A stretch of 64,000 bases of DNA from a virus. Its lineage: Duplodnaviria; Heunggongvirae; Uroviricota; Caudoviricetes. Position 1 is the first letter of the stretch. The number at the start of each line of letters is the position of its first letter. Location: IMG/VR virus record IMGVR_UViG_3300045988_157791; one strand, written 5' to 3'. The position numbers and the translations under genes were made by a program. The notes below the pieces were generated by a model. It searched no databases. It saw only the letters and a list, made by a program, of their open reading frames with translations, and was not told the origin of the DNA. This document shows positions 1,901-61,592 of this stretch, piece by piece.

Positions 1901-1930
1901 ACATAGATAACTACCTATCTACCACACTGA

Positions 1931-2806
1931 TTAAATTTTTACATTGGTCAGTGCAGCGATAGCCTTATCGTGCTTATTCGCCAGAGAGCAGTACCACTTC
2001 ACACGGGTACGTACTGCGTCTTTGTTCTGTACAGTACCAATGTTTTCAACAACGATACCTGCGTTGTCGCCGCCATACAGACCAGTAACGCCGTTCTCTT
2101 CTGACAGATGCAGGCAGTAGATGCTTGCTTTGCCAGAATCGGTCGGGATGAAGTCGTTGATGATGAACGGAACGCCGTTATGACACAGCATCGGACGACC
2201 GAAGTTCTCCATCATGATTTCAGACGGACCTACGTTTACTGTACGCAGCAGCGCACGGTAAGCACGCAGGTGCTCTGAACGCATCATGATGCAGTCAGCA
2301 CCAAGATCTTTCACCGCATCGACCAGTTCGTCGAACATAGAGAAAGTCATAGATGCACCGGCGATATCGATCTTCTGATCTGCGTGCATCAGGCGTGGAA
2401 TGCCGTCAAACGCCTTGTTGTTGGAGCTGGAGTCACCCAAAATCAGGTTGCGACGGAACGCACGAGCCAGACCTTTAACTTTCTGACGAACCTGAATAGC
2501 CAACTGGTTGTTGGTGTCGGCCATAGTGGTCGCCAGGAATTTATCAACGTCTACGTCACCAGCCAGAATACGCAGTTTCGCAACGCATTCTTCGAAGGTT
2601 GCTGCACCTTCAGGGATGGTGTCGTTAACGTCGATGAAGGTAGCTTCACTCAGCGTTTTTTCACGGTTGTACAGATATGCCTTTGAATTAATTTTCATAA
2701 AAGGCAGGATGGCAAACAGGTCATCGCGATCGATGATAGTTTCGATCACACCCTGTTCAAGTTCGTTGTTAGACAGCTTTTCAGCTTCTTCACGCAGTAA
2801 TGGCAT
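1931..2806 (-). CDS. putative major capsid protein
   Basis: 291 aa; position between scaffold-like and decoration-like genes downstream of portal; identity by gene order and general resemblance only. Confidence 0.5.
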   Translation of the reverse strand: MPLLREEAEKLSNNELEQGVIETIIDRDDLFAILPFMKINSKAYLYNREKTLSEATFIDVNDTIPEGAATFEECVAKLRILAGDVDVDKFLATTMADTNNQLAIQVRQKVKGLARAFRRNLILGDSSSNNKAFDGIPRLMHADQKIDIAGASMTFSMFDELVDAVKDLGADCIMMRSEHLRAYRALLRTVNVGPSEIMMENFGRPMLCHNGVPFIINDFIPTDSGKASIYCLHLSEENGVTGLYGGDNAGIVVENIGTVQNKDAVRTRVKWYCSLANKHDKAIAALTNVKI

Positions 2807-2831
2807 CTATCAATTCCCTTTGATTTAGATG

Positions 2832-3719
2832 TTACTTAAGTCCAATTTTCCCCAGACCGGAGGCCAACTTATCCATAGTCGACTTATTCTTCGGTTGGGA
2901 TATTGTGTAGGTCGATTTGGAATGTGAGCCTACACCCTGCTTGGCTTCGCTACGCATCAATGCGTCAGCTTCCGGATCTGCCCGCACAATGCGTTCAATC
3001 GCGGATTCAAACGGCAACGGCTTACCTTCACCGTCAACCAGAACAGCTCGTTCTTTGTGACCTGCCGGTTTGTCATAACCCACTACGCTACCGTCTTCAC
3101 CCACTTCAAAATGAGAACCGTAGATCACGCGGGCTTTTGCCGGGGTCATCAGAACTTTGTCACGTAGGAAGAGAGAGTTACTGAAGGAAGCGCCCACGGT
3201 CATCTCGACTAATTGAGATTTCAGTGATGCGTTTTCACTTTCCAGTGCTGCATAACGTTCGTCACGCTGTGCCAGCTCTGCCTGGTGTGCTTCGATCATC
3301 TGTTTTTTAACAGCATCGAACTCACCACGACGCTCCAGTTCAGCTTGCTCCGCCTCACGACGTGCGTTTTCTGCGGCCTGTTCAGCTTCTAAAAGCTGGC
3401 GAGCACGAGCCGGATCGATATCACCGTACTGAGCAAGCTGATCGGCCAATGTGCGCTCTTTCTCTTTGCGCTTCATGTTCTCCTTCAGCAGTTCAGCACC
3501 AGCTTTCTTGGTTTTACGAAGTTCGGCCAGTAACTCTTCCTGAGTCATGCCAGCGTATTCGTCATCGCCCTTCGGCTGCTCTTTTTGTTCACCCTGTTTG
3601 TCAGGATCTTGTGTACTCTGCTCATTATCAGCAGCTACACCGCCAGCGCCTCCACGCTCATGCGCTTCAGCGACATCCATCAGACCACGACGGGCCAAAA
3701 GCATTTGCCACAGATTCAT
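2832..3719 (-). CDS. putative scaffolding protein
   Basis: 295 aa, highly charged, long predicted coiled-coil (EAEQAAENARREAEQAELERR...), between portal and capsid. Confidence 0.5.
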   Translation of the reverse strand: MNLWQMLLARRGLMDVAEAHERGGAGGVAADNEQSTQDPDKQGEQKEQPKGDDEYAGMTQEELLAELRKTKKAGAELLKENMKRKEKERTLADQLAQYGDIDPARARQLLEAEQAAENARREAEQAELERRGEFDAVKKQMIEAHQAELAQRDERYAALESENASLKSQLVEMTVGASFSNSLFLRDKVLMTPAKARVIYGSHFEVGEDGSVVGYDKPAGHKERAVLVDGEGKPLPFESAIERIVRADPEADALMRSEAKQGVGSHSKSTYTISQPKNKSTMDKLASGLGKIGLK

Positions 3720-3740
3720 AAAAATTCCTTTTGTTACTTA

Positions 3741-5315
3741 TCACTCGTTCTCTTGAGTAGATGAGTCCCCATTCCCTCGGGGTTGATCTTGCCCGCTTTC
3801 TTGGGCTGCACCACGATCATAAGTAAGTACTGACTTATTTTCAAGGGTATTTAGATCATTTTTTGGAGGAAAATTCAAGAGATCTTTATCAAATTCCTTT
3901 TTCATCGCCTCAGTAATGTTCGGGAAAATCTTCTCAATAAGCATTTCCATCTGGTGACGACGTACAGAGTCCGGTGCCTGAAGTAATGACAGTTTCTCGG
4001 CAACAGAAAATTCATCAGTAAGGCCACGAATATCGAAACTTTCTGGATATGCAATTAAAGAGTGGTCTTCGTCCAGATCTACCCCCATCCATTTCGCAAC
4101 CAGTAGCATGATTTGGCGTTCAGCCCTTTCCAGACGCTCTGCTTTTGTGACAAGCAAGCTATTTACACGCTGGAAGTCATACATTTTTGCGGCACCAGAT
4201 GAATTATCGATTCCCTGTGCGTTGTCCTGCTTCGTTCGCTCACCAGCTACACCAACTGAATGGTAGATTTCGTTAATCACCGTCTTAATCGTAGTGATGA
4301 TCATCTGAGCTTGTTTCGGGTCTGGTGACAGATAAAACGGCTGGTTTCCACCTTCAGAATCGTAGGTGAAGACTCGCTTTGTGCCCATTTCAAGCACTTT
4401 AGTGTGGTTTTCATCACCAGGTAAAAGCGACTGTACCGGTATAGCCAACTGGCTAAATGTCTGATCCTGAATAATGGCATCAAGGTTTGACAGATAGTTT
4501 GCAACCGCACGATCAAGATAAGCGATATCATCGATCAACGATGGGCTGAAATACGGTGATTCACTTTCTCCAATACAATCAACAGGAAACACAGGAACTA
4601 CGCCGAGATTATGCTCACCGCTATCCTCTAAAATAACTTTTGCCTGACGGCGACCTGCTCCACCAGCGCCCTTCTTCACTTCCTCACGGAACAGATACCA
4701 CTCGTTTTGTGTCCACAGACGATAACGTTGGTATTCCTGACCTGTAGAAGTAAAAGGATCTGCGTCATCACGAGCGACTTCCACAATTAACGCCCACAAC
4801 ATATTCCCGTCGTCGTCCCATGCCACATCCAGCATTTGCTGAGGTGAAATCCAGTAGGCGTAGGCGCGAGCATCTTTCTTTTTCTCGTCAGCTACTGACT
4901 CAACATCACCACTCATCGTGCTATCGACAACAACCCATATGCGACCGTAAATAGACGACTGCAAATCAATAGCGGCCATAAATGAGTCAATAGAGGCATT
5001 CTGGCGAGTCGCACGTTTCCAGAAATTGCGGATCTGCTCTGGTGCCTCTTCGATATTTCTATGAATGTCTTCTTTAAAGAGATATTTGTTGATGAGGTTT
5101 ACCACCTCACGAGTGTGGTTGAAGCGATAAGCACGTTCAACTCGCTCCTTAAACTCCTGATCTCCCTCTTTAAAGTAACGAAAGATATTGTCTGTAAACC
5201 AACCACGCCCGCCAGCGTAAGTGCTGGCGAGGAAGTCCCAATGTTCTTTTTTCTTTTCGTATTCCGGGTGGCGTCGCGCCACCAGATCCTTAATTTGTTT
5301 GTCGTTCAATTCCAT
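3741..5315 (-). CDS. putative portal protein
   Basis: 524 aa ORF immediately downstream of large terminase; size and position typical of portal. Confidence 0.5.
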   Translation of the reverse strand: MELNDKQIKDLVARRHPEYEKKKEHWDFLASTYAGGRGWFTDNIFRYFKEGDQEFKERVERAYRFNHTREVVNLINKYLFKEDIHRNIEEAPEQIRNFWKRATRQNASIDSFMAAIDLQSSIYGRIWVVVDSTMSGDVESVADEKKKDARAYAYWISPQQMLDVAWDDDGNMLWALIVEVARDDADPFTSTGQEYQRYRLWTQNEWYLFREEVKKGAGGAGRRQAKVILEDSGEHNLGVVPVFPVDCIGESESPYFSPSLIDDIAYLDRAVANYLSNLDAIIQDQTFSQLAIPVQSLLPGDENHTKVLEMGTKRVFTYDSEGGNQPFYLSPDPKQAQMIITTIKTVINEIYHSVGVAGERTKQDNAQGIDNSSGAAKMYDFQRVNSLLVTKAERLERAERQIMLLVAKWMGVDLDEDHSLIAYPESFDIRGLTDEFSVAEKLSLLQAPDSVRRHQMEMLIEKIFPNITEAMKKEFDKDLLNFPPKNDLNTLENKSVLTYDRGAAQESGQDQPRGNGDSSTQENE

Positions 5316-5341
5316 TTGAATAACCTTAGATAATTACTTAC

Positions 5342-6598
5342 CTATCGAGAACCACCAAGAATAACACGGTTTTTGACTGGATACCTACGATGTACTGGAT
5401 AGCCCAATGCGTCTGCACTATGCTCAATGCCACCTGTCTTATCCATATCTCGTGTTCCAGGCTTGTAGATGACTTTTTCCAGTGAATCAATCAAATGCTT
5501 GCACTTCGGATCGATATACAGCCGGATATCTCCAGATGCGGACATCAGCATTCGGTTAACAGCATTAACACGATCCGCAATTGGCGGGTGCTTTTTCGAA
5601 TAATCGACACGTAAGAATCCCTTCTCTTTGAATATGTCTACGTCAGACTCCCCACGAGCATGTTGGCGATAAGCACCTGCCGGATCTGGAAATACCGTTA
5701 CCTGTGATTTCCAGCGCCAGAAGCGTCTCTCAAGCTCATCACAAACTTCTGCCGTGTTAGAGGAAAAGAGCACCAATTCATCAATTGCCCATAGCTCACC
5801 ATTTGGCTGAGGTTGCAAAATTACTGAAGACATCGGGTCAATGTTGAAGTCCTGCCCTACCCATATAGGCAACCGAGGGTTGAACTGAAGCGGTTTTACA
5901 TGCACGTTACGATCGAACGGGTAGTAAACGCGCCCGGACATGTTCTCAAAGCTGGCCAGGTACTCCTGAGCGAACGATTTGGGGTCCATATCGTTCTTAG
6001 CAGCTTCAATTTCCGCCGTAGGTACAAACGGAGAATCGGCAGTTACAAACTGCCAGCTCTTCCACTGTCCCTTTCTTTGCAGCTCTACGTTCTGGCCTAT
6101 AGTCCACAGTTTGTGAAATTCCGAGAAGCCTTTTGGCGTACCAATGATCAGTGCACCGCCGCGTGTCGATGAAAGAGTAGGTCGTAACACCTTGTACCAG
6201 GTGTCAGCCTTCATATCCTGAAATTCATCAAGCACTACAAAATGCAACGCTACGCCGCGCAGAGTGTCAGGCTTATCAGCACCTTTGAGGGCGATCTCCG
6301 AACCGTTCTTCAACACGATTGTCATCGTGGTGTCGTTCTTTTTCCTAACCCACTTACGAGGCAGAACTTCCTGTAGATCGTCCCACAAAATCTGGCGAGC
6401 CATCTGGTAAGTAGGAGCGACATACCAGACCCTTTGCTTTTTTTCCTTTGCCGCCGCACGAATAATAGTGGAGATCGACAACCGGGATTTTCCCCAGCGT
6501 CGACCAGCACAAACAACTTTAAATCGATGCGGAGACTGGAAGACTTTCATCTGTCCAGAATGCAGTTGCACAAGACTGAGCGAGGACGGGATTGCCAT
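5342..6598 (-). CDS. terminase large subunit
   Basis: Walker A-like VVCAGRRWGKSRLS near N-terminus, followed by nuclease-like C-terminal half; stop/start coupled with small subunit. Confidence 0.7.
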   Translation of the reverse strand: MAIPSSLSLVQLHSGQMKVFQSPHRFKVVCAGRRWGKSRLSISTIIRAAAKEKKQRVWYVAPTYQMARQILWDDLQEVLPRKWVRKKNDTTMTIVLKNGSEIALKGADKPDTLRGVALHFVVLDEFQDMKADTWYKVLRPTLSSTRGGALIIGTPKGFSEFHKLWTIGQNVELQRKGQWKSWQFVTADSPFVPTAEIEAAKNDMDPKSFAQEYLASFENMSGRVYYPFDRNVHVKPLQFNPRLPIWVGQDFNIDPMSSVILQPQPNGELWAIDELVLFSSNTAEVCDELERRFWRWKSQVTVFPDPAGAYRQHARGESDVDIFKEKGFLRVDYSKKHPPIADRVNAVNRMLMSASGDIRLYIDPKCKHLIDSLEKVIYKPGTRDMDKTGGIEHSADALGYPVHRRYPVKNRVILGGSR

Positions 6599-7230
6599 TA
6601 TTCGTCCTCCCCTTCACTTCCAACATCTGTCGCATCAAATTCGCTTAGAGCTTCTTCTTCCAACGTCTCAAGCAATTCGTCATCGATGATTTCAGGCTCG
6701 TCGTCTTCCTGACGTAATTTCGCCACCTGGGAAGGCGTAAGCTCACCAAATACCAGGTTCGGAATTTCTTCCTCGTCATTTTCCGCATGATCCATGCCCA
6801 ATGCTTTGGACGAAACTTCAAAGCATTTTGCAAGGGTATTACTGGCTCTCTGTAAGCTCTTGAGAGAATCCTCAATCGCCCCTAAAGGCTTACCCTCACG
6901 TTTGGCCGTAGTGACTTCGACCATCACCATCTGCCCCAACGCATACGCCCAGCCGTCATAACGTGTACGACGTTCTTCTATCTTTTCCGCACGGGCTTTA
7001 GCGCGAAGCTCTGCGTCAGATTTAAGAGACTCACGAACCATCTTCCCAACAGAGTCCGCGCCTTTCTCTAATCCTCGCTTTTTGAAATGTCTGGAGAGTG
7101 TTTCACGACGAATGCCGTACTCTTCCTCCAGCTTTGAGAGTGTATATTCGCCTGACGTCCATTTGGCTTCAGCTTCGGCCCACTCCGCTGGTGTCAGGCG
7201 AGTTTTTACCTCGTCTTTTTCGACCGTCAT
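6598..7230 (-). CDS. putative terminase small subunit
   Basis: 210 aa, N-terminal HTH-like segment, acidic C-terminus, directly upstream of and overlapping large terminase. Confidence 0.45.
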   Translation of the reverse strand: MTVEKDEVKTRLTPAEWAEAEAKWTSGEYTLSKLEEEYGIRRETLSRHFKKRGLEKGADSVGKMVRESLKSDAELRAKARAEKIEERRTRYDGWAYALGQMVMVEVTTAKREGKPLGAIEDSLKSLQRASNTLAKCFEVSSKALGMDHAENDEEEIPNLVFGELTPSQVAKLRQEDDEPEIIDDELLETLEEEALSEFDATDVGSEGEDE

Positions 7231-7344: not shown

Positions 7345-7405
7345 AGCCTGCTTCCGTATATATTTAATAAGTTACTTATTATTTATATATACAGATGCAG
7401 GTCTT
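7345..7405. repeat. long hairpin with AT-rich loop (copy 1 of 2)
   Basis: GCCTGCTTCCGTATAT...ATATATACAGATGCAGG inverted repeat; near-identical element at 37366-37425. Confidence 0.5.
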
Positions 7406-7425: not shown

Positions 7426-7692
7426 TTACATCACCAGTAACTTCGCTTTGGCTCGACCTAAAGTGGTTAACCCAAGAGTCCGGCGGTGATAGCGATTGTC
7501 ACTGCGTTGGCGCGTATGCCCTTTCTCCACCAGCCCCTTTTTTATCAGAGCGCGAATTGAGAACTGGATACTTTGCTTGGTTGTCTTGTACGGCAAAACT
7601 TCAAGCAATTCGTCCAGGTCAAGTAGATGACCTCGCTCATAACCGAGATTGAGCGTTTTGATGATGTCCTTTTGTTTATCGGTTAACGTCAT
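7426..7692 (-). CDS. small putative DNA-binding protein (winged-helix-like)
   Basis: 88 aa, basic; first gene of tightly coupled operon 7426-10617. Confidence 0.3.
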   Translation of the reverse strand: MTLTDKQKDIIKTLNLGYERGHLLDLDELLEVLPYKTTKQSIQFSIRALIKKGLVEKGHTRQRSDNRYHRRTLGLTTLGRAKAKLLVM

Positions 7693-7701
7693 GGCAAATC
7701 C

Positions 7702-8592
7702 TTATGCCGGTAAAGCAATTTCTAACGGTTTATCCAAAGGTTGTTTGTCGAATGCCAGCAGTGGCAGCGTGTCAGGCAGTCGACGGCCAAAGTCAGGGTT
7801 TCGGTACACACCATACAACGGAGACGTAAAGCTCAGGTTGTGAATGTCCTTGAGCAGCTTCACAATGCTGGCCTCGTCCACCAGACTGTCGGCAATGTCC
7901 TGAATCGTCGTGCCACGATTCCGCCCAGCTTTTGCCAGGGAACTGTTCTTGTGGTAGTCCGCCACCAGATCACGCAGTGCACGGCGACGACGAGACTCGC
8001 TCATAGCGAACAACTCTTTGACGATCGCCTCGTTATCACCCGGGTCGGAGCGGAAATGGCGCTGGAACACACGCAGTGCACTTTCATAGCTCTTCGGTCG
8101 CTCAGGGCGGATGAACTTAAACCCTGCTTTCATGGCGAAGGGATTGTATTTGCTCATCGATGACTGGATCTCAATGATTGGCCGGTCATGCATCCTGCTA
8201 ACCAGGTTAATCATTCGATAAGAGACGCCTACGCCACGATACTGAGTATCCACAACTGAGCGACTGATCACCGCAAAGTTGTTATTCACGTACCGACCCC
8301 AGTACTGGTTAGCCACGGTGGTATTAGTGGTTGGTTTCAACTTAGGAAACATGCGGTGGCGAGGTGCCAGCAGTAGTTTCGGATAAGCCATAACCACGAC
8401 GCCCACCAGACGGTCATCAAGTTCGCAGCGATAGTAAGTTGGCGCGAAAGGTTTGCCGTCTGTTTTGTAGTGAAGCGACTTAAGAGCGTGCCAGTCCTCT
8501 ACAGTTCCCTTTGTGACTGTCATTCGTTCCAGAAAGTCCAGATGACGCGGAAACTCTTCAGGGCGGTAGCGTTTAATGATGATGTCCGTCAT
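7702..8592 (-). CDS. hypothetical protein with GNAT-like motif
   Basis: 296 aa; AVISRSVVDTQYRGVGVSYRMINLV resembles GNAT motif A (R-x-x-G-x-G); weak. Confidence 0.3.
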   Translation of the reverse strand: MTDIIIKRYRPEEFPRHLDFLERMTVTKGTVEDWHALKSLHYKTDGKPFAPTYYRCELDDRLVGVVVMAYPKLLLAPRHRMFPKLKPTTNTTVANQYWGRYVNNNFAVISRSVVDTQYRGVGVSYRMINLVSRMHDRPIIEIQSSMSKYNPFAMKAGFKFIRPERPKSYESALRVFQRHFRSDPGDNEAIVKELFAMSESRRRRALRDLVADYHKNSSLAKAGRNRGTTIQDIADSLVDEASIVKLLKDIHNLSFTSPLYGVYRNPDFGRRLPDTLPLLAFDKQPLDKPLEIALPA

Positions 8593-9254
8593 GAATGGAC
8601 CTCATCATGACTACCATTGTGATATTCCACCTTCACGCGTTCTTTGTAGTGCTTGGTGATCTGCATATCCGGGCGCAGCGCGTTCTTCAGGTCTTCGTGA
8701 GTCGTCGCCACCATTACCGTCGCACCAACCTTTCGAGCGGCACGCTGGAGGTTAGATGCCACAACCTGAGCGGTTACACGGTCTAAAACAGCACCGAACT
8801 CGTCAGCAGCCCACACTTTAGCGCCTGACTCAATCAGTTTGGCAATCTTGAGACGATATTTCTGACCGTCTGACATTTCAGAAGGCTTGCGAACAAACAG
8901 ATATGCATCGTTCAGACCAGCCATAGATAACAATCCAAGCGCATCACTGGTCGTTTTGCCCAACTGATCGATGACGTTAACCTCATTATCGAAGGTAAAA
9001 TCATCGATGGAGGCTACAGACAGCCCTTCATCCTTCATCTGTCGTTGCAACTCGCGCAGCACAACGGATTTGCCGGAACCGGATTGGCCGGTGATGTACA
9101 CCACATCGCCCTGCTTCACTTCCAGCTCCAGATTGTCGTAAAGCGTCCACTCTTTTTCGTCCAGACCAAGCCCGAACGACTCAGCGATTTCCAACGTGCG
9201 CGTGGTTTTATTTACGCGTGTCTGAAACGATACGTTGATGATGTATTTGCTCAT
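8589..9254 (-). CDS. ABC-type ATPase
   Basis: Walker A GQSGSGKS, signature-like MSDGQKYRL, Walker B VWAADEF, H-loop ATTHED; 4-nt overlaps with neighbours. Confidence 0.65.
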   Translation of the reverse strand: MSKYIINVSFQTRVNKTTRTLEIAESFGLGLDEKEWTLYDNLELEVKQGDVVYITGQSGSGKSVVLRELQRQMKDEGLSVASIDDFTFDNEVNVIDQLGKTTSDALGLLSMAGLNDAYLFVRKPSEMSDGQKYRLKIAKLIESGAKVWAADEFGAVLDRVTAQVVASNLQRAARKVGATVMVATTHEDLKNALRPDMQITKHYKERVKVEYHNGSHDEVHS

Positions 9255-9952
9255 GCAGCCATCTCCCCGGAAGAGATCTTCTCCGCATATGCCACAAATG
9301 CGTCTACCCCGCTTTCTCCCGTCATTTCTTCCATGTGGGCAAGCAAATCACCAACAACAATGGCAGAGCCAGCAGGAAGCGTTTTAAAGCCCAATACGTC
9401 GACAACACGTACTTCTTCCGCTGCAACTTCACGACTGATCTCGGTGTGTTCATCCTTCTGTCGTTTAGTTTCTTCGCCAAGATCGATAACTAGCGAGTCG
9501 GTGTCCATTTCTTCTGTCATACTGCCAACGAGAACATTCAACTCACGCTCTTCAAAGCCGAAAACCTCGATATCGTCCAGAACAAGCGACTCAAGCTCTT
9601 TCTGTAGCTTAATTGCATCGTAATCAATGCTGGCAAGTCGGTTATCTTCAAGGCGCTTCGCACGAACCTCGTCATCACTGAGATCATCGCGAACAATAAC
9701 CGGTACGCGCTCAAGTCCAGCAAAAATTGCAGCCTCACGGCGGCCATGACCAGTAATAATTACGTCGTTCTTATCGACCGTAATTGGCTGGTCAAATCCG
9801 CGCTTTTTAATGGCTGCGGCCAGATCTCTGATCTGCTGTTCATCATGCTTTTTGGCATTCATCTCATAGGGAATAAGATCTGCCGGGTCGCGATATACGA
9901 TTTCAAACTTTTTGGTCATTACATACGCTCCTTGTAGTAGTCGACCAGCCAC
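9251..9952 (-). CDS. ParB N-terminal (ParB/Srx) domain protein
   Basis: ITGHGRREAA motif characteristic of ParB-N nuclease/NTPase-like domain. Confidence 0.55.
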   Translation of the reverse strand: MAGRLLQGAYVMTKKFEIVYRDPADLIPYEMNAKKHDEQQIRDLAAAIKKRGFDQPITVDKNDVIITGHGRREAAIFAGLERVPVIVRDDLSDDEVRAKRLEDNRLASIDYDAIKLQKELESLVLDDIEVFGFEERELNVLVGSMTEEMDTDSLVIDLGEETKRQKDEHTEISREVAAEEVRVVDVLGFKTLPAGSAIVVGDLLAHMEEMTGESGVDAFVAYAEKISSGEMAA

Positions 9953-10617
9953 ACCAGAGCCTCACCAGCGTTCTCCATTTCATTACCGGTGTTAATAGCC
10001 TGCTCTTTGATGATGTTTTTTATGGTTTCTGCAACACGATCTGACGCATCGAAAGTTACTTTGAAGCGCATGGTCTGATGTTCCGCACCCACACGTTCGG
10101 TTTTCTCTCGTTTGTCGGTATCGACAGGCTCATCACTACCACGAGACAACGCCTCCAGTGCTTCAAGGTCGATTGCCGCCTCTTTTGCTAAAACCATCGA
10201 GATTTCGTCGTCATACGGGGCGATTTCAGACAGTTGATAGTCAAGTTCTGACTGAATTTCTTCAATGAAGCGTTGCAATGCGATTTGGTCGTCTTCACCG
10301 TATCGCTCGTTGTCCACCAGTGACATCTGTTTAGCTACGACATCGCTAATTTTGCCCACAGAAAGCACCGGAACCGTTGAAATTCCTTGCTCAATAGCGG
10401 CACGCCAGCGATGTTCGCCGCCGAGGATTTCAAAAAATCCATCTTCAAGTTCACGAGCCAAAATTGGCTTAAAAAAGCCCAATTTTTCGATAGAACCTTT
10501 CAGTTTTTCAAAATTCTGCGCACCAACCGAATTGGTGTTCCAGGTATTCGGGCGAAGGTTGGCAACATCAACCTGCAAAATCGTGATTTTTACATCCATT
10601 TTATTGCTACAATCCAC
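9919..10617 (-). CDS. ParB N-terminal (ParB/Srx) domain protein, second paralogous domain
   Basis: ILGGEHRWRAA motif; overlaps start of previous gene. Confidence 0.55.
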   Translation of the reverse strand: MDCSNKMDVKITILQVDVANLRPNTWNTNSVGAQNFEKLKGSIEKLGFFKPILARELEDGFFEILGGEHRWRAAIEQGISTVPVLSVGKISDVVAKQMSLVDNERYGEDDQIALQRFIEEIQSELDYQLSEIAPYDDEISMVLAKEAAIDLEALEALSRGSDEPVDTDKREKTERVGAEHQTMRFKVTFDASDRVAETIKNIIKEQAINTGNEMENAGEALVWLVDYYKERM

Positions 10618-10681
10618 TAAGTAATCACTTACTTATTATAATAGCCAAATAACATACAAAAGGCACTAAGGAAAGAGGTTT

Positions 10682-12241
10682 ATGACTGTTCGGATTGTAT
10701 CTAACGCAGTAAATGCGCTTATTTCTGGCGCAGATGACAAGGTAAAGCAACTGGTGCAGCAAATGTTGAGCTACGAAGTCGAGACTGGCGACTGGAAGGG
10801 CACAAGCACGATGTTCAACTGGAGTAAAAACTCGTTCCCTGCTGGCTTTGCCAAGCCTGTAGCGGCGAACTTGAACAAGGCGGGCATCAAATGTGTTCAT
10901 ATCCGCAAAGACAAAGCCCCGGCGCTTGGAAAGCCAAATCCGGCGGTTAACCCATTCCCATACAATCCTGATTATGCGTATCAGGATCAGACTGTGGAAA
11001 CACTAGTTCGCGAGGGAATGATGATTGCGCAGATCGCTACTGGTGGCGGGAAATCTAATGTTGCCTGCAAAGCAGCTGCACGTATCGGTCGAATGACATT
11101 ATTTTTAACAACCCGCTCTGTTCTGATGTTTCAAATGGCCGAAAACTTCCAGAGATCCATCGACTACCGCGCCAAAAATGGCGAACCGTGGTTAAAAGAC
11201 CAAAAGGTTGGAGTCATTGGCTCGGGTGAGTTCCAGGTATCACGACATATCAACGTCGCTACAGTTCAAACTCTGGCAAGTTTCCTTGAAGAACCACCAC
11301 GCGATGCAACACCAGATAAGAAGAGCTACCACCTCAAACGTCGGGACTTGGTGAAACGCTTCCTTTCAAGTGTGTCTCTGCTTATTCTGGAAGAGGCGCA
11401 TGAGTCTTCAGGCTCTAATTTCTATGACATCGCCAGATTATGTGTGAACGCAGACTATCGTCTGGCGCTTACAGCCACGCCGTTCATGAAGGATTCTACA
11501 GAAGCCAACATGCGTCTGATGGCTGTGGCCGGGCGAATTGAAATTAAAGTCACAGAAAAGTACCTGATTGATCGAGGCATTCTGGCAAAACCGTACTTCC
11601 TTTATCATAAAGTTGCTTACAAGCCAGACGAGGTCAGAATCAAGGCGGAACTTGCCAACAAACACCTTAATTTTAGAGTAGGTATGAGCACTGCCTACCA
11701 AAAGGCTTATCAGTTGGGGATCGTGTATAATTTGGGACGTAACGAGGCCATTGTGCGCGAAGCATTGCTCTATAAGCAACATTCTCTCAATTGTATGACT
11801 CTGGTTCGTCTTAAACGCCACGGGCAAATCCTGATGGAGATGATGAAGGAGTCCGGCCTTAGAGTTGACTTCATTTATGGGGAATCGAACCAGGCGACAA
11901 GGCAAGCAAAGCTGAACAGTTTAGCGTCTGGCGAAATAGATGTTTTAATAGGCTCGACTATTCTGGATGTCGGTGTTGATGTGCCAAGCGTGGGCGCGGT
12001 CATTCTTGCTGGTGGTGGGAAAGCAGAAGTTGAAATGAGACAGCGTGTCGGTCGTGGCTTACGAGCAAAAAAAAATCAGGCAAACGTGTGTTTTATCACT
12101 GATTTCATTGACATTAGCAACAAATACCTGTTGTCTCACTCTTATGAGCGAAAACACATCATCGACACCACACCTGGCTTTGCAGAAGGTGTATTGCCTA
12201 TTGATGGCGCATTCGATTTTGGAGTTCTGAAACGAGATTAG
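10682..12241 (+). CDS. SF2 DEAD/DEAH-box helicase
   Basis: Walker A TGGGKS, motif II LILEEAHE, motif III TATP, motif VI QRVGRGLR; RBS AAGGAAAGAGG upstream. Confidence 0.7.
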   Translation: MTVRIVSNAVNALISGADDKVKQLVQQMLSYEVETGDWKGTSTMFNWSKNSFPAGFAKPVAANLNKAGIKCVHIRKDKAPALGKPNPAVNPFPYNPDYAYQDQTVETLVREGMMIAQIATGGGKSNVACKAAARIGRMTLFLTTRSVLMFQMAENFQRSIDYRAKNGEPWLKDQKVGVIGSGEFQVSRHINVATVQTLASFLEEPPRDATPDKKSYHLKRRDLVKRFLSSVSLLILEEAHESSGSNFYDIARLCVNADYRLALTATPFMKDSTEANMRLMAVAGRIEIKVTEKYLIDRGILAKPYFLYHKVAYKPDEVRIKAELANKHLNFRVGMSTAYQKAYQLGIVYNLGRNEAIVREALLYKQHSLNCMTLVRLKRHGQILMEMMKESGLRVDFIYGESNQATRQAKLNSLASGEIDVLIGSTILDVGVDVPSVGAVILAGGGKAEVEMRQRVGRGLRAKKNQANVCFITDFIDISNKYLLSHSYERKHIIDTTPGFAEGVLPIDGAFDFGVLKRD

Positions 12242-12243
12242 TT

Positions 12244-12522
12244 ATGAGCGAAAAGAAAACAACTTATTGCCAAGTGGCATTGTCTGATAAGGCCAATGAA
12301 AAACTTGGAAAATTTCAAATAAAACTCAAAGAGAAAAAAATCAAGATGTCTAAGGCTGAAGTTATCAATGCCATTCTGGAGACGATGACTATGGCTGAAT
12401 TTGACAAAGTCACATCTGCCGTTGGGGTTTCCGCTAAGACGCGTGAGAAAATCATGCGCATCTATGAGAACTCCAATATGACAAAAAAAGATCTAGAGGA
12501 AATACTGAGCAGGTTGCCGTAA
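12244..12522 (+). CDS. small hypothetical protein, possible ribbon-helix-helix regulator
   Basis: 92 aa, lysine-rich, starts 3 nt after helicase stop. Confidence 0.3.
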   Translation: MSEKKTTYCQVALSDKANEKLGKFQIKLKEKKIKMSKAEVINAILETMTMAEFDKVTSAVGVSAKTREKIMRIYENSNMTKKDLEEILSRLP

Positions 12523-12587
12523 CATTTCATATTTACCCCCTATCTACTAATTCTATGATGTGCTCACTTGTTAGAAAGGAGCACATC

Positions 12588-13154
12588 ATGAGTTGGTTAA
12601 AAGAATTATCATTTGTTGACACCACTGGCGCTAAGAAAAATCATTCTTTCTGGAAAGTCAGCGATCCTTCCGATTTTCTTGTTGGTGCTAATGCTGCTTT
12701 TGAATTGCTTAACTTTTATCAACGTTATCCTGAAATGAAACACAGTCCACTCCTGTACAGAATAACAAACGATATGAATAGGTCTGGTTTATTATCAAGT
12801 GAGTCAGCGAAAGGCTTTTTTAGCAAAATTACGCCACACATATCATTCGATTCAGCAAACGAAATTGATTATCTACCCACGAAACCTCAAGAACAATTAT
12901 CTGTACCACCTGAGAAAAAAGAAAGACGAATTGCCAGCATTGAAAATATATCGAAAGAGCTTCGCACAACAACGTTGAGGCTGCTGAACTTTCTTACGCT
13001 ACTTAATTGGATAGATGATCAAACATTGATTCCATCAACCGATGCGTTGGATAACAGAGTCCTTAGGCTGAACAAAAAATCGCAATTTGGTTTTGTGTTC
13101 ACCAAAAAAGGTGAAGATTTAATCAAAAGAAAATATAGATTATTGAATGATTAA
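12588..13154 (+). CDS. hypothetical protein
   Basis: ORF track 12555..13154; internal ATG at 12588 preceded by AAAGGAG 7 nt upstream chosen as start. Confidence 0.35.
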   Translation: MSWLKELSFVDTTGAKKNHSFWKVSDPSDFLVGANAAFELLNFYQRYPEMKHSPLLYRITNDMNRSGLLSSESAKGFFSKITPHISFDSANEIDYLPTKPQEQLSVPPEKKERRIASIENISKELRTTTLRLLNFLTLLNWIDDQTLIPSTDALDNRVLRLNKKSQFGFVFTKKGEDLIKRKYRLLND

Positions 13155-13539
13155 TAGTCTACATGCAGGTGTATGAGAGCACCTGCATGTGACACTCATC
13201 ACATTTTTGAATGTATATACCTTCGGCTGAAAAAAGATCTTGATAGGCTGAATGATATTTGTAGGCTTCGCCTCCGAAGAAATTCGGAGGATATATGCGA
13301 CAATTTATAAAAACGTGTGACCTAAGAAATATAGTAGATGATATTGCATGTGATGAAATTAGCAAAAAAGAGAAGAACAAAAACGCCAATTAACGCTATC
13401 TACCTATAAATCTGAAGAGTTCAATAGGATGCATATCTGAAACACGCCCTCGACGATACCAAAAAGATTTGTCGAGGGCGTCGGGCTTTCCCTATGTCTG
13501 AACGATTAAATTTTACAGCAATTAAATATTTTGTATATG

Positions 13540-14340: not shown

Positions 14341-14442
14341 GAAACTTATTCCATAATCAATTTTTGGTGGAATGTACGGTTAGTCTGTCTACGCATCATA
14401 GAGATGTATATAATGACCAAAAAAGACTTAAAAAGGTAGACT

Positions 14443-14964
14443 ATGGTTAAAGACATCACCTACGGCATACCGGCTGAAGTCTGGCCGCGAGACTACGAAC
14501 ATGCTGAAAACATACTTATGTTCTGGCGGAAGAACAACATTCCTGTAAGAGTCACGCTTGAAGACGGTCAGGTGTTTTGCATGTACGTTCAGGGGACAAT
14601 GCCTTCCCGCAATAAGCTAGATTTATGCCCGCTTCCATATGATAAAGAAAATCGTATAAGACTCCCACTTGAGCGCATTAGCACAATTGAATCAGGTGTA
14701 ATCGATGGCATTGCTCGCGAGTTCAAAGGTAGGCTAACAATACATCCAGACTATGTTGACAATCAGCCATCACGCCGTGACTTTTTTGCGATATGTCGCA
14801 AGGCTTATCAAAACGACCAATCTATAAGGGTCTACATGGCAGACGGTCGTGAAATAGAAGGGGTGTCAAGAGGCGTTGATGCTTGTCAGGTCACTCTTAA
14901 GTTAGAAGACGGCAGAAAAATACTTGTTTTCTTCGATTGGGTTGAACGAATCCTTCCATTTTAA
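14443..14964 (+). CDS. hypothetical protein with internal duplicated small beta-rich motif
   Basis: 173 aa; IPVRVTLEDGQVF and VTLKLEDGRKILVF repeated segments (Rof/Sm-like pattern, weak); TATAAT at ~14409 upstream. Confidence 0.4.
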   Translation: MVKDITYGIPAEVWPRDYEHAENILMFWRKNNIPVRVTLEDGQVFCMYVQGTMPSRNKLDLCPLPYDKENRIRLPLERISTIESGVIDGIAREFKGRLTIHPDYVDNQPSRRDFFAICRKAYQNDQSIRVYMADGREIEGVSRGVDACQVTLKLEDGRKILVFFDWVERILPF

Positions 14965-52174: not shown

Positions 52175-52428
52175 GTGTTTTTCCTTTGTGGTTATTTTGA
52201 TACAAATTCTAAGAGCAATGAGGAGGTAAACAACTATGCATAACGGTATGTTAGGAATGAAACGAGCGCCTTAATATACAAAATTTATAAGTAAGTATAT
52301 ACCTATTTATCGTGGCGCAACTTTGCTTGTCTGTATGACTAAAAATAAGACAGGATCACTGTAGAACGCTATGAGAGCTATTTTGAGGGGGCGTAGATTC
52401 TATCTACGCCAATATACGATCTGGAGGG

Positions 52429-56085: not shown

Positions 56086-56124
56086 GATAGGTAGATACTA
56101 ACTTATATAAATTTTACTGTAAAC

Positions 56125-58007: not shown

Positions 58008-58099
58008 GTGTTTTCCTATGTGGTTGTTATGCGAAAATAATAAGTAAGTACTTATATATTTTCAAGAGATAAACAAGGCGTCCTGTGGACGCCTTGTGT

Positions 58100-59173
58100 T
58101 TACTCTTCTACTGACTCGGTGGGGTTGTCTTTTGCTCTTCGGTCGTCGATTGCCTGCAAAGCCGCAATGATTTCAGCCAGTGGCTTCTCCCGATACATCT
58201 CAACGATCTGCGATTTGGTGTATTTCTTGTCACCAATTTCAACTCGCCCGCTGGCGTTCTTTGGCAGGTATCCTTCTTCCAGCATGTACTCGACGAGCGA
58301 TTCGATAACGTCGAGGCCACGAGTAGGATCGAAGTAGAATTTCCAGGTGCATTTGCCATACGGTGGTGCAACTTTGTTTTTGATGCATTCTGCGCCTACG
58401 TCCTGGCCGATCTTCTCTTTACCATCCTTCATCACCGATGCACCAAGACGGATACGTACAGAAGCGTAGAACTTCGGTGAATCTCCACCTGGCGACGTAG
58501 TAGGGTCGCCAAACATTACACCGATTTTTGTGCGAACCTGATTCAAGAAGATGATGCAGGCGTTGTATTTGCGTGCCCACAAAGCCAGAGTAGGGAAGTT
58601 CGCACTCGTCGCACGAGCCAGTGCCGTATTGTCGTTCATGTTTAGCTGATCTTTGTCTTTGGCAGTGCCTTCAGCCATCTTTTCGAACTTCTCGGCTTTG
58701 GAGTTCGGAACCATAGACGCAAGAGAGTCAGCCACGATACAGATAGGTGCTGATTCGGGGATAAGCTCTTCATCACGAACCAATTTAAGTATTGTGCCGA
58801 TCAACTCTACAGAGTCTTCGAAGGTATCTGGCTGCTTGTATACCCACTGACCGTCATCCTCATCTGCGTTCAGGCCATTGGCTACAGCCAGGCCAACGTC
58901 AAAACTGTTTTCATGATCGAGGAATACCGCCAGACCATCTTGTTTTTGAGCGGAGATCATCGCTGCTGTTGCAAGGAACGTTTTCCCTGCACTTGGAGGA
59001 CCGAATACTTCGACGATACGACCACATGGGAAGCCGCCATCGTAACGACCAGAAATAGCTTTGTTTAACGGTGGAAAGCCTGTATCAATCCAATGAGTTA
59101 CTTTCTGAATTTCGTCGTTGCTACCGATTTTCTTTTTCAGAGCAAGTGCCAGTGCGGATTTTCCTTTTGCCAT
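58100..59173 (-). CDS. RecA-family recombinase
   Basis: Walker A GPPSAGKT; IFLNQVRTKIGVMFGDPTTSPGGDSPKFYASVRIRL parallels RecA [36 protein letters not shown]. Confidence 0.7.
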   Translation of the reverse strand: MAKGKSALALALKKKIGSNDEIQKVTHWIDTGFPPLNKAISGRYDGGFPCGRIVEVFGPPSAGKTFLATAAMISAQKQDGLAVFLDHENSFDVGLAVANGLNADEDDGQWVYKQPDTFEDSVELIGTILKLVRDEELIPESAPICIVADSLASMVPNSKAEKFEKMAEGTAKDKDQLNMNDNTALARATSANFPTLALWARKYNACIIFLNQVRTKIGVMFGDPTTSPGGDSPKFYASVRIRLGASVMKDGKEKIGQDVGAECIKNKVAPPYGKCTWKFYFDPTRGLDVIESLVEYMLEEGYLPKNASGRVEIGDKKYTKSQIVEMYREKPLAEIIAALQAIDDRRAKDNPTESVEE

Positions 59174-59175
59174 GA

Positions 59176-59448
59176 TCAGGCTCCTTTTGTTTCGTTGATT
59201 CGTTTTAAAGCGGCGGATTCATCGAATACAATCGCATCGTGGTTAAGGAGTCTGGATACACGAGCGAGGATTTTTACGACCTGCTCGCTGACTAATCCAA
59301 ACTCGCGATCTGTCGCTTTCATTCCGGCAGCGCCTAGAATTGACGGCAGTGCGATGACAGCGTACTCACCGTGATAAAAGACAATCTCTTTTGCCAGTTG
59401 GGCAGGGGTGGTTGTAGCGCCATTGATAATCGATTTAAGCATTAGCAA
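59176..59448 (-). CDS. small hypothetical protein
   Basis: 90 aa ORF between flap-endonuclease and RecA-like genes. Confidence 0.3.
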   Translation of the reverse strand: MLMLKSIINGATTTPAQLAKEIVFYHGEYAVIALPSILGAAGMKATDREFGLVSEQVVKILARVSRLLNHDAIVFDESAALKRINETKGA

Positions 59449-60437
59449 TACCTTTCGAATGGAAGAACAAACACTTCAAGGTCTTCAAGGAACGAACGGA
59501 AATTCAGCTCGTAGCACAGTTGCTCGAATGCTTTCACGTCACGATTGCCTTTGATTGTTTCGATTTCGGTAGGCGGAAACTTCGTCTCAATCAGGTTCAT
59601 TAGCGTGATGTTTCTCTTGAACGCTTCGAGCATTCGACAGCCTGTTTTCTCGTTGAAGGCATTCTTCGCTAGTTTGTTGAAGGCGGTCTTATGACGCCCT
59701 TTATTAACCACGATTGAGCCGTCGTTGATGCCGCGTACCATCGTTGCGACACTTCCCCATTCATGCAGCAGCTCTTTCGCACCGCCAGCACCAATGCCAC
59801 CAACACCGCTAATGTTGTCCGAGTTATCGCCTTGTAATGCTTTTGCTTCCAAAAATGCGCGAGGCGTGGCGAATCCTGTCAGCTCCGCAAATTGCTCAAA
59901 ATTAACCTGCTTGTTTTTGGCGTCTTCACGCAGGCTTACCCAGCTTACGTTTTCACGAACTAACTGAAGCCAGTCGCTATCGCCTGTTAACAGATAGATG
60001 TGTTCAACGGTTGGCTGCGGTGCCATGCGGGATACCAGCAGCCCGGCCAGATCATCCGCTTCTGCATCTTTTGCAATGAGTTGGGTAACTCCAAGCGCGG
60101 TCATCATTTTGAGGATGTATGGCTTCTGGATAGCAAAGCCTTCCTTCATCTTTTTCATATCAGGATCGTCGTCGCGATTTGCTTTGTAGTCCGGGTAAAA
60201 GTCGCGACGCTTGTCACTAAATCCATCCCAAAGAATCATAGGTCGGGCATGGAGGATGGAGGCATAACGACGGACGTTCTTAACAAAGCCGAAAGCAGCC
60301 TGTACTTCCATTTCGCCGTTGTGCAATTTGTCAGATTGTTGGTGGTAATAACCCAGGCTATTGCCATCTACGAAGAGATAATTCACCGGTACATTCCTTC
60401 CAAAAAGTAAGGCGTCCGTAGACGCCTTACTGGTCAC
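59442..60437 (-). CDS. 5'-3' exonuclease / flap endonuclease
   Basis: N-terminal LFVDGNSLGYY, central TGDSDWLQL, GDNSDNISGVGGIGAGGAKELL typical of Pol I-type 5' nuclease. Confidence 0.7.
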   Translation of the reverse strand: MTSKASTDALLFGRNVPVNYLFVDGNSLGYYHQQSDKLHNGEMEVQAAFGFVKNVRRYASILHARPMILWDGFSDKRRDFYPDYKANRDDDPDMKKMKEGFAIQKPYILKMMTALGVTQLIAKDAEADDLAGLLVSRMAPQPTVEHIYLLTGDSDWLQLVRENVSWVSLREDAKNKQVNFEQFAELTGFATPRAFLEAKALQGDNSDNISGVGGIGAGGAKELLHEWGSVATMVRGINDGSIVVNKGRHKTAFNKLAKNAFNEKTGCRMLEAFKRNITLMNLIETKFPPTEIETIKGNRDVKAFEQLCYELNFRSFLEDLEVFVLPFERYC

Positions 60438-60446
60438 GTAATGGGA

Positions 60447-61475
60447 TTACAGAGAGTCCAGCTCTCTCAGTAGGTCATCCAGACCTTCGTCTTCCGTCGC
60501 AGATGCGGCTGCTACAGATGTCGCTGCGACTGCTTCAGACTCTTTGACTGATACGGCAACGGCAGCGGAACTTGCTTCTGGTTTAAATTCAGTTTCAACG
60601 GCACGGAGGATTTCTTCATCAACCAGACTGGTTGGTTCAGAAGCTGGGGTGTGAGCGGTTGCTACAGCAGTCGCACCCTCCGTATGACCAGTGACAGAGC
60701 CAAATCCAGGTAGTGCCGCAGCCGATGTTTTCGCGGTTGAGGAAATTGCTGGTGCAGATGCTGCGGCAGTTGGTGCAGCGATGCCAATCAGACGACCCAT
60801 AGTGCGAACTGTCGACAGAAGACGAGTTTCATCAGCCTGATTTGCGTATGCGATCAGATCATGCTGGGTGTTCCAGAATTTATCTTCGATATCGCCTTTG
60901 TAGACTTTACGCTTAGGCGAGACGTCATATTTGGTATCGCGACCAGAGCCAGTACGTTTAATCAGGAATGCGTAGCCTTCCTCTTTGCTCAGTGGATTGC
61001 CGATATCATCAGCGATGTCTTCGGTGATTGCTTTGCAGATATCATCGAATACAGTAGACGGCAGCTCGATTAACTGGCATTTCTCAGCATCTGCGAAATC
61101 CTCACGAGCAGAAAGAATGCCGTTGACCAGGTAGCGAGGAGTGGCACGCATTTGACCGATGCGTTCTTCCATTGCTTTGTTACCCTTGTGACGAGCGCGA
61201 CCTTCCATAACCATTTCGCATAGCTGACAAGCGCGACCGTGAGTATGTTGCTCACAAATATAAGCGTTGGTTGCTTCTTTACCTTCCTCGTTCTGATACT
61301 TAACGTAGTGCATACCGAAAGTCTGGAAGAACTTACCGTTTGGGTCGTCTTTATTCGGGAAGATGCGGATATAGTTGACGCCGTCTTTTAAGCGAGTCAG
61401 ATCAACGTTGTTGCCACGTTTGGCGGCAATGTCTTCACGAGTTTTGTTAAGCAAATCAAGTAATGTCTTAGACAT
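60447..61475 (-). CDS. putative ssDNA-binding protein (gp32-like)
   Basis: Possible Zn site CEQHTHGRACQLC, Ala/Ser/Thr-rich linker, acidic tail DEGLDDLLRELDSL. Confidence 0.45.
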   Translation of the reverse strand: MSKTLLDLLNKTREDIAAKRGNNVDLTRLKDGVNYIRIFPNKDDPNGKFFQTFGMHYVKYQNEEGKEATNAYICEQHTHGRACQLCEMVMEGRARHKGNKAMEERIGQMRATPRYLVNGILSAREDFADAEKCQLIELPSTVFDDICKAITEDIADDIGNPLSKEEGYAFLIKRTGSGRDTKYDVSPKRKVYKGDIEDKFWNTQHDLIAYANQADETRLLSTVRTMGRLIGIAAPTAAASAPAISSTAKTSAAALPGFGSVTGHTEGATAVATAHTPASEPTSLVDEEILRAVETEFKPEASSAAVAVSVKESEAVAATSVAAASATEDEGLDDLLRELDSL

Positions 61476-61592
61476 GTGTTTCTCCTTGTTGTGATTTGGC
61501 CGATGGCGCTATGCGCGTTGGGCTTTCGTTCATTCGTGGCTCTTTCGAGCTGTTAAATGATAGATCAGTACTTACTTATTATCTATCAAAAA

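Follow-up and report, generated by a model that had tools for sequence, protein, structure and literature searches.

A palindrome recurs at the gene junctions of an SSU5-type phage-plasmid

A near-perfect 20-bp palindrome is repeated between the lytic genes of the virus record IMGVR_UViG_3300045988_157791 from IMG/VR, of which a stretch of 64,000 nucleotides (here called the window) was analyzed. The properties of the copies fit sites for a dimeric DNA-binding protein and not RNA hairpins or terminators. The function that we tentatively prefer, while conceding that another may well prove correct, is that of operators for a single global repressor, which would silence the dispersed lytic genes and block read-through into them. 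Megablast comparison with phage records identified the window as part of an SSU5-type phage-plasmid. It matches Escherichia phage Cyrano (pLF82, OV696614) in reverse orientation at ∼97 to 99% identity and Salmonella phage SSU5 and Klebsiella phage-plasmids at ∼79% nucleotide identity. Four complete genomes were used for comparison: Cyrano, SSU5, Klebsiella pJN2-26, and the Acinetobacter baumannii plasmid ZW85p2, which is syntenic with the SSU5-type members at a protein identity of 25 to 60%.

The consensus is a dyad in which the half-sites ATAGGTAAGT and ACTTACCTAT abut, and its symmetry reaches ∼26 bp, the left flank favoring (A)(W)(R) and the right flank (Y)(A)(T). All 73 sites share T6 and A15; position 4 is R, and position 17 is Y. 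Counts in the window were compared with those in dinucleotide shuffles of the same sequence. The 11-mer ATAGGTAAGTA has 10 matches with no more than one mismatch (0.59 expected; shuffle maximum of 3), and the 20-bp palindrome ATAGGTAAGTACTTACCTAT has 12 matches with ≤5 mismatches (0.1 expected) and 10 with ≤4 mismatches (0 expected). A weight matrix built from three related genomes gave 18 window sites that score at least 12 bits, of which 13 reach 22 bits or more (Table 1); the matrix was trained on the sites that it counts, whereas the mismatch counts are independent of this training.

The window comprises head genes (positions 1 to 7230), a ParB-like operon, a plus strand and accessory block, and modules for nucleotide metabolism, recombination, and replication; the main lytic transcription runs along its minus strand. 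All 18 sites lie in lytic-direction modules, and 17 are intergenic, the exception (3819-3838) lying inside the portal gene, 88 bp from its end. The weight-matrix scan returned no site among the plus strand genes at 10682-16185 and none between 19068 and 30856, where metG, apbC/minD, umuD-like, and ea22-like accessory genes are found. An initial annotation, made from the letters of the window, had reported at least 15 junction copies across the phage-like modules, a motif-free metG-apbC block, and overlaps with stop codons and a promoter. The matrix sites, which extend from 1903 to 61579, bear out all three observations: one copy overlaps a stop codon (5326-5345), another abuts one (30857-30876), and a third (19048-19067) overlaps the −35 and spacer of a sigma-70-like promoter. 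The same annotation had proposed a genome-wide scan for intergenic enrichment, which was clear in the complete Cyrano genome: of the 23 sites that score 20 bits or more, 22 are intergenic, although intergenic DNA makes up 13% of the genome (binomial P of ∼8e-19). Shuffled intergenic DNA of Cyrano yielded ∼0 sites with the matrix, which was trained on the Cyrano sites themselves.

Each genome holds 23 to 30 sites, more than 90% of them intergenic, in promoters and short gaps of lytic genes. A copy is typically placed 8 to 20 bp past the preceding stop codon and a median of 42 to 53 bp ahead of the following start codon, the gene starts behind these distances being annotated and unmapped. A few copies end 1 to 12 bp from the following start codon; at hyp60 and hyp35, the 1 to 2 nt between the motif and the ATG leave no room for a transcript start. 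Genes preceded by copies include those for the portal, major tail, fiber, holin, single-stranded-DNA-binding (SSB), NrdA, and ThyX proteins.

Table 1. Palindrome copies in the window, with their weight-matrix scores and orthologous positions, and genes of candidate binding proteins (MCP, major capsid protein; ORF, open reading frame)
Coordinates	Strand	Feature or junction	Score (bits)	Orthologous copies	Remarks
1903-1922		MCP/Ig-like protein	16.5	Cyrano 5443, SSU5 5471, pJN2-26 44026, ZW85p2 24626	Copy ATAGATAACTACCTATCTAC; followed in minus strand transcription by the capsid gene terminator hairpin (1896-1880)
3819-3838		Within portal gene 3′ end	30.0	Same sequence in SSU5 and pJN2-26	Exactly the spacer and −10 of a near-consensus minus strand promoter, TTGAAA-17-TATGAT (3844-3816; 10/12 match)
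5326-5345		26-bp TerL/portal gap	22.8	SSU5 2031, pJN2-26 40580, IMG contig L039 13980, ZW85p2 28302	Over TerL stop codon (ORF 5342-6598, including stop); copy in every lineage examined
7367-7386		Winged-helix gene/terS	17.3	Stronger copies upstream of terS at IMG contig L056 1394 and ZW85p2 30314 and 30784	Weak copy
10617-10636		Divergent ParB-like/UvsW promoter region	24.0	SSU5 99798, pJN2-26 34779, ZW85p2 35634	ZW85p2 copy with TATAAT facing UvsW
19048-19067			18.8	SSU5 93165, pJN2-26 28031	Variant copy GTAAGTATGTACTTACAATA; overlaps −35 TTGTAA and spacer of the sigma-70-like minus strand promoter TTGTAA-17-TAGAAT (19065-19037)
30857-30876		DUF4942 methylase/Ead	30.5	Cyrano 84620, SSU5 84178, pJN2-26 20935	Abuts stop of ORF 30876-32561
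35836-35855		RNase H/hyp83	32.3	SSU5 79904, pJN2-26 16842
37011-37030		hyp80/hyp81	22.5	SSU5 78709, pJN2-26 15673	Abuts upstream stop codon
37388-37407		Dam/hyp80	25.7	Position kept at SSU5 78319, pJN2-26 15285	Degenerate AT-rich copy with 7 mismatches to consensus despite its score; less certain
38051-38070		11 bp ahead of Dam methylase start codon	27.6	SSU5 77651, pJN2-26 14621	2 mismatches; pJN2-26 copy is perfect consensus
42890-42909		15 bp ahead of ThyX start codon	18.5	Cyrano 72595/72599, SSU5 72511, pJN2-26 9789
43028-43047		MazG/ThyX gap	14.9	Cyrano 72458, SSU5 72357	Weak second copy; abuts MazG stop
47603-47622		RuvC/NrdA	29.1	SSU5 67775, pJN2-26 5035	2 mismatches; in ZW85p2, copy at 74156 directly downstream of RuvC-like gene
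52287-52306		ASCH/SbcD	28.0	SSU5 63080, pJN2-26 343
56087-56106		Ends 1 nt before annotated ATG of 59-aa membrane protein hyp60	29.8	SSU5 58074, pJN2-26 104805	Without RNA folding (0 kcal/mol)
58040-58059		RecA-like/membrane protein (memb56)	32.0	Same arrangement at Cyrano 57446, SSU5 55695	Minus strand ctcTTGAAA-ATATATAAGTACTTACTTAT-tat, ending in TATTAT; full sigma-70-type promoter with the palindrome as spacer
61560-61579		UvsY/gp32-like SSB	30.9	SSU5 52175, pJN2-26 99981, ZW85p2 84809
7426-7692	−	88-aa minimal MarR/PadR-like winged helix			Last gene of ParB-like operon, immediately upstream of terS
9251-9952	−	Second ParB/Srx-like protein			Same operon; PF02195 (E = 1.5e-8); 43% identity in ZW85p2; weaker candidate
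9919-10617	−	ParB-like protein, ParB_N domain			PF02195 (E = 3e-13); TIGR00180 and Noc-like matches; in all four lineages

The palindrome occupies the same junctions in divergent relatives

Under a threshold of ≤5 mismatches, 23 copies were found in SSU5 and 22 in pJN2-26, with an unchanged consensus. BLAST alignments across the sites matched most Cyrano copies to a copy at the same junction in both genomes. In these alignments with Cyrano, identity within the motif is 0.81 to 0.86, compared to 0.70 to 0.78 in the neighboring noncoding DNA; the orthologous sites of related genomes are nonindependent samples. An exact-pattern scan of IMG/VR found the motif chiefly in SSU5-like contigs. One relative in that database, at ∼40 to 50% protein identity, carries the variant TTAAGTAAGTACTTACTTAA at the TerL/portal junction and downstream of its major tail gene.

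The Acinetobacter plasmid ZW85p2 contains 27 copies of a related dyad, ATTAGTAAG-YR-CTTACTAAT, of which 24 are intergenic. Copies lie at the orthologous TerL/portal and ParB/UvsW junctions, just past the capsid gene, and just past the RuvC-like gene. The enterobacterial and Acinetobacter dyads have in common the core GTAAG-NN-CTTAC, and the two lineages carry related but different palindromes (GGTAAGTACTTACC and TAGTAAGYRCTTACTA). Retention of the same junctions and of a shared core across such divergent relatives suggests that the element is old and functional and that it has probably been coevolving with something encoded by the plasmid itself.

The two half-sites are constrained independently

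If the copies were selected as RNA or cruciform stems, the two arms of a site should complement each other better than arms taken from different sites. Arm complementarity within sites was no higher than between sites in any of three genomes (P = 0.42 to 0.83). For the two variable pairs (4/17 and 5/16), G-C, A-T, G-T, and A-C combinations occur in numbers equal to the product of the marginals, with 16 A-C mismatches observed versus 17.4 expected, and the pair-type counts gave no G-U bias at paired positions. Two independently constrained half-sites whose centers are separated by ∼10 bp are characteristic of a dimeric DNA-binding protein. The initial annotation had suggested operators for a dimeric regulator as one of two possibilities, and this part of its proposal is strengthened, albeit indirectly, by the dyad, the independence of its halves, the overlap with core promoters, and the conserved junctions.

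Copies overlap promoter-like sequences and may be operators of one repressor

Read in the direction of transcription, positions 18 to 23 of the element are TATYAT, and a −10-like hexamer stands at offset 17 in 37 of the 73 sites. Two copies, inside the portal gene and at the RecA/memb56 junction, are directly preceded by TTGAAA, giving a full TTGAAA-17-TATSAT in which the dyad supplies the spacer and the −10. The copy at 19048 overlaps a −35 in a different register, and in Cyrano the orthologous copy at the ParB-like operon closely follows a TATAAT. With a −10-like hexamer at its 3′ edge, a better-kept 5′ half, and, in most copies, no −35, the element resembles a regulator site superimposed on a core promoter. 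Not every copy can itself act as a promoter, given the mirrored flank, the different register, and the copies 1 to 12 bp from start codons. The opposite side carries a mirror image of the −10-like hexamer in the enterobacterial genomes, and its directional excess is not significant, because the flanks are symmetric; the −10-like sequence may simply be part of the palindrome.

In the reading that we tentatively prefer, each copy would be bound by a dimeric, phage-encoded protein over the core promoter of lytic-direction genes. The 20-bp dyad would span about −29 to −10, the classic position of an operator, with TATYAT at its 3′ edge. One global repressor would in this way silence ∼25 to 30 dispersed lytic transcription units in the plasmid-prophage state, and copies in the tiny gaps between cotranscribed genes would also act as roadblocks to read-through. 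This reading accommodates the varying register of the copies and those that abut start codons. It also agrees with the distribution of the sites, which are confined to lytic genes and absent from the opposite-direction and accessory genes that are likely expressed in the lysogen.

The putative DNA-binding proteins conserved in every motif-bearing lineage are a CI-like helix-turn-helix (HTH) protein, two ParB_N proteins, and the 88-aa winged helix. The CI-like protein (CYRAN_45, encoded outside the window; matches to HTH_19 and PHROG 8) would be the most economical binder, with the winged helix and the ParB-like proteins as alternatives. It is conserved from E. coli to Acinetobacter, and its predicted recognition helix has invariant residues. 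In Cyrano and pJN2-26, the core GGTAAGTRCTTACC lies 29 bp from the CI-like gene, in the divergent region shared with a cro-like neighbor, and in ZW85p2 a homologous half-site and a TATAAT lie upstream of the CI-like gene. The CI-like/cro-like intergenic region of Cyrano (contig L002, 42575-42825) also holds a second inverted repeat, TTACAACC…GGTTGTAA, which brackets the motif copy, and two 21-bp direct repeats, possibly further operators that belong to the immunity switch.

Phage SSU5 lacks the CI/integrase module, yet it retains sites of full quality. Phage D29 is said to have kept its stoperators. The SSU5 sites are not decisive, since D29, too, arose from a temperate parent by deletion and has no repressor (PMC5712189).

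Several observations weigh against a repressor. Between Cyrano and pJN2-26, the CI-like protein has an identity of only 58%, yet both genomes have the same motif consensus. Most copies have no recognizable −35 or extended −10, and their best sigma-70 match averages ∼8/12; with the −35 mostly missing, they would be weak as free-standing promoters and would hardly need a repressor. The halves of the site are also unequal. In ZW85p2, conservation favors the 5′ half at 17 sites and the 3′ half at 4 (P = 0.003), the latter half often being remodeled into a perfect TATAAT toward the downstream gene, and the same trend toward the 5′ half is present in the three enterobacterial genomes (13:6, 13:8, and 12:7). 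Such polarity suits a design of activator plus −10 at least as well. Finally, the copies ahead of the portal, major tail, fiber, holin, and SSB genes occupy spots expected of late promoters, at the median distance of 42 to 53 bp from the start.

Activator-dependent promoters are the strongest alternative

The sites might instead be activator-dependent promoters like the late promoters of P1, a possibility that we consider real but less probable than operators. Here, the palindrome would replace the −35 and be bound by a phage activator, for instance, the winged helix encoded upstream of terS, while the hexamer at the 3′ edge would be the −10 for host RNA polymerase with sigma-70, so that one factor would turn on ∼25 to 30 middle and late units. 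The layout is similar: P1 late promoters have AAGTNACTT followed by 4 bp and TAnnnT, and here AAGT-ACTT is followed after 3 to 4 bp by TATYAT. The half-site polarity, the missing −35, the hexamer at a fixed offset in about half of the sites (37/73), the usual spacing to the next start codon, and the placement ahead of highly expressed genes and of the portal, major tail, fiber, holin, SSB, NrdA, and ThyX genes would all be explained. Eight ZW85p2 sites carry a perfect TATAAT at register 17/18 that is directed toward the downstream gene, and a TATAAT on the mirrored side of an intergenic site occurs only at ParB/UvsW, where it faces UvsW. The winged-helix gene stands at the usual position of a late activator and is conserved in all four lineages, and SSU5, lytic and without the CI module, keeps its full-quality sites.

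Other features fit an activator poorly. The geometry departs from that of P1 by 1 to 2 bp, and the dyad is 20 to 26 bp instead of 9 bp. The enterobacterial hexamer is mirrored without directional excess, the register is not fixed (the copy at 19048 overlaps a −35), some copies abut start codons, and one lies at the promoter of the CI-like gene. MarR-like proteins are, moreover, mostly repressors. A homologue of the P1 activator Lpa was sought by tblastn and phmmer in Cyrano, SSU5, and pJN2-26, and none was found (the best E value, 0.024, was to a noncore protein); PF25716 (Lpa) had no match among the ∼20 proteins scanned, and BLASTP of Lpa against the winged-helix protein gave no match.

The winged-helix protein was characterized further as a candidate binder. 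Its AlphaFold2 model (mean predicted local distance difference test score of 81.5) has the pattern helix-helix-helix-β hairpin-helix, with terminal helices that appear suited to dimerization. The top Foldseek matches of the model in the PDB were 2pg4, MepR, and MarR, with weak Sta1/Lrs14 matches elsewhere; sequence searches of the PDB gave no match. Homologues are present at the same position in SSU5, pJN2-26, ZW85p2, and the IMG contig L056, and the homologue search, which returned only near-identical sequences from SSU5-like contigs, added no functional annotation. The more specific proposal that SSU5/pHCM2-type and ∼110-kb Acinetobacter elements share an ancient regulon of −35-less promoters switched on by this MarR-like protein is, in our judgment, doubtful. 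If it were true, the protein would be a nonhomologous functional analogue of Lpa that redirects host sigma-70 polymerase to ∼25 to 30 middle and late promoters, and the palindrome would coevolve with its recognition helix.

ParB-like proteins, RNA structures, and repeats explain the sites less well

It is unlikely that the copies, in the manner of the KorB operators of RK2, Noc sites, or dispersed parS, are loading or binding sites for the two ParB-like products of 9251-10617 and serve genome-wide silencing or the organization and segregation of the DNA instead of classical promoter occlusion. Two ParB_N proteins are conserved in every motif-bearing lineage; the gene at 9919-10617 is the first of its operon, and the promoter region of that operon holds a motif copy in all four complete genomes. 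Proteins of this family bind palindromes of 13 to 16 bp at many dispersed sites. The operon, however, runs in the lytic direction beside terS without linkage to the ParA gene, the site exceeds known ParB-family sites in length, and the matches in these proteins are to ParB_N, with no HTH domain shown. Strict intergenic placement and promoter-like edges are better explained by control of transcription. Apart from its relation to the motif, the five-gene operon (7426-10617, minus strand), which encodes ParB-like, ParB/Srx-like, ABC ATPase, ABC-ATPase/acetyltransferase fusion, and winged-helix proteins directly upstream of terS, is conserved in phage-plasmids from E. coli to Acinetobacter and is unlinked to the ParA partition gene.

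The second possibility raised by the initial annotation, an RNA stem-loop in lytic transcripts with a role in processing or termination (or, by extension, in stabilization or translation), is very improbable, as is an extruded DNA cruciform. Such a structure would be in keeping with the self-complementary consensus and with the location of many copies 6 to 20 bp past a stop codon and of some directly ahead of a ribosome-binding site. Five of the eight copies tested fold better than shuffled sequences (z scores of −2.3 to −3.75; −6.0 to −7.8 kcal/mol). The hairpins predicted by RNAfold are nevertheless of low stability (0 to −7.8 kcal/mol), and the expected hairpin is absent from two high-scoring copies. 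The copies have no U tracts, and GC hairpins and T runs beside the sites are no commoner than at random positions (strong hairpins within 66 nt); a terminator hairpin after the motif is striking in only a few cases, namely, after the capsid gene and at RuvC/NrdA. The RNAfold results, the complementarity comparison, and the pair-type counts led us to reject RNA and cruciform hairpins.

Least probable of all is a selfish or neutral palindromic repeat (of the repetitive extragenic palindrome or miniature inverted-repeat transposable element kind) or a recombination or mosaic-boundary sequence without regulatory role: the copies are dispersed, intergenic, and palindromic, and the core GTAAGTAAGTACTTACTTAC also occurs in unrelated phage contigs, but the copies are fixed at orthologous junctions across four lineages with protein identity of only 25 to 60% and a coevolving consensus, they showed neither target duplications nor flanking repeats, and no RAYT-like transposase was found in the annotations or among the scanned proteins. 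The GTAAGTAAGTACTTACTTAC matches outside SSU5-like contigs were examined as possible copies of the same element and rejected. They come from unrelated phages (IMG/VR contigs L014, L016, L028, L048, L051, L059, L074, L082, and L085), where the core forms the tip of an inverted repeat of ∼66 bp (…GGAGTTGTAACCTCTTTAC…), a different element that has the core in common by chance or convergence.

Other candidates and neighboring features

Two further candidate regulators were set aside. The FljA-like gene at 14443-14964 (plus strand) encodes a full-length “repressor of phase-1 flagellin” (PF03614; E = 5e-81) and is present in SSU5 and pJN2-26. It was ranked low as a binder because it is absent from ZW85p2, which has the analogous motif. 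FljA is reported to act on fliC mRNA, and the gene might enable the plasmid to change flagellin expression in its host. A phage sigma factor was rejected because the protein concerned, from ZW85p2, has no homologue in Cyrano, SSU5, pJN2-26, or the window and because the dyad misfits a −35/−10 pair. Its gene (ZW85p2 92323-92988; contig L088, 42323-42988) is annotated as a sigma-70-family factor with a weak Sigma70_r2 match (E = 0.003) and lies between a cobS-like gene and the region matching the Cyrano polymerase.

The accessory block at 22895-26613 encodes a full methionyl-tRNA synthetase, a MinD/ApbC-like ATPase, and a UmuD-like peptidase, and it is missing from SSU5, pJN2-26, and ZW85p2. Its absence from these relatives and its lack of motif copies suggest a recently acquired insert. 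The RecA/UvsX-like gene at 58100-59173 (minus strand) encodes 357 aa; the annotated proteins have 779 aa in Cyrano and 732 aa in ZW85p2. An insertion of ∼1.27 kb in the Cyrano gene, not present in the window, is probably an intein or homing element. Two near-identical, GC-rich 28-nt hairpins (TTAAGGCCACCAGCATTGGTGGCCTTA) lie in inverted orientation at 17469-17496 (plus strand) and 17940-17967 (minus strand), flanking a small ORF (17500-17913), and may be paired terminators or mark both ends of a small cassette that was inserted.

Significance and comparison with known systems

Phage-plasmids of the SSU5/pHCM2 type are often found in clinical E. coli, Salmonella, and Klebsiella, and related elements of ∼110 kb in A. 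baumannii carry resistance genes (sul2 and tet(B) in ZW85p2). No description of the motif emerged when the literature was searched by exact sequence and by topic, and neither the LF82/Cyrano paper nor the phage-plasmid surveys mention it; a 2026 preprint that mentions pHCM2 deals with an unrelated 49-kb family. The literature searched likewise gave no account of how SSU5/pHCM2-like elements are silenced as plasmids or switch to lytic growth. One palindrome at ∼25 to 30 control points would provide a map of transcription units, three candidate regulators, and a handle for inducing, curing, or silencing these elements, and the differing palindromes of the two lineages offer a natural basis for a specificity swap.

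Among known systems, the late promoters of P1, which depend on Lpa (gp10) and SspA, share with the element a host range, a phage-plasmid lifestyle, the lack of a −35 (here in most copies), an inverted repeat just upstream of a −10 (annotated in NC_005856 for P1, putative here), and many copies ahead of morphogenesis and lysis operons. The P1 repeat, however, is 9 bp long and centered near −22, whereas here AAGT-ACTT lies inside a dyad of 20 to 26 bp whose halves abut without a central base, with the center ∼7 bp from the −10-like hexamer as opposed to 9 bp. The ∼25 to 30 copies also precede replication and nucleotide-metabolism genes, which distinguishes them from the P1 set, as does the lack of a detectable Lpa homologue.

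The C1 regulon of P1 resembles the arrangement proposed here in that a single repressor of a phage-plasmid acts at many dispersed operators over lytic promoters (annotated as Oref, Omat, Ossb, Oc4, OrepL, Odmt, Oban, O26, Oppp, OpmgR, OpmgT, and Olpa). These operators, with the consensus ATTGCTCTAATAAATTT, differ in being asymmetric 17-mers at variable positions in the promoters. In the KorB system of RK2 and in Noc or ParB systems, one ParB-family protein binds a palindrome that recurs in at least a dozen scattered intergenic locations, and it silences transcription globally. ParB_N proteins are encoded here as well, with a motif copy in their promoter region, but KorB sites are 13 bp and often far from promoters, whereas the present site is longer and the ParB-like operon runs in the lytic direction.

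In L5 and other cluster A phages, more than 20 copies of a short motif are dispersed over promoters and the short gaps between lytic genes (PMC9283540), much as in the window, and the CI-less SSU5 with its sites recalls D29, which is likewise repressor-less (PMC5712189). The L5 sites are asymmetric, oriented 13-mers bound by a monomer with two DNA-binding domains (gp71), as opposed to a symmetric dyad of 20 to 26 bp with mild polarity. The 22-bp repeat of T1 and Stevie is similar in its 16 to 20 mostly intergenic copies in a siphovirus genome (PMC4319613), but it is asymmetric, runs in one direction, and is unrelated in sequence. The element described here is thus set apart from the P1 late promoters by a different dyad and the lack of a detectable Lpa homologue and from the L5 and C1 sites by its symmetry.

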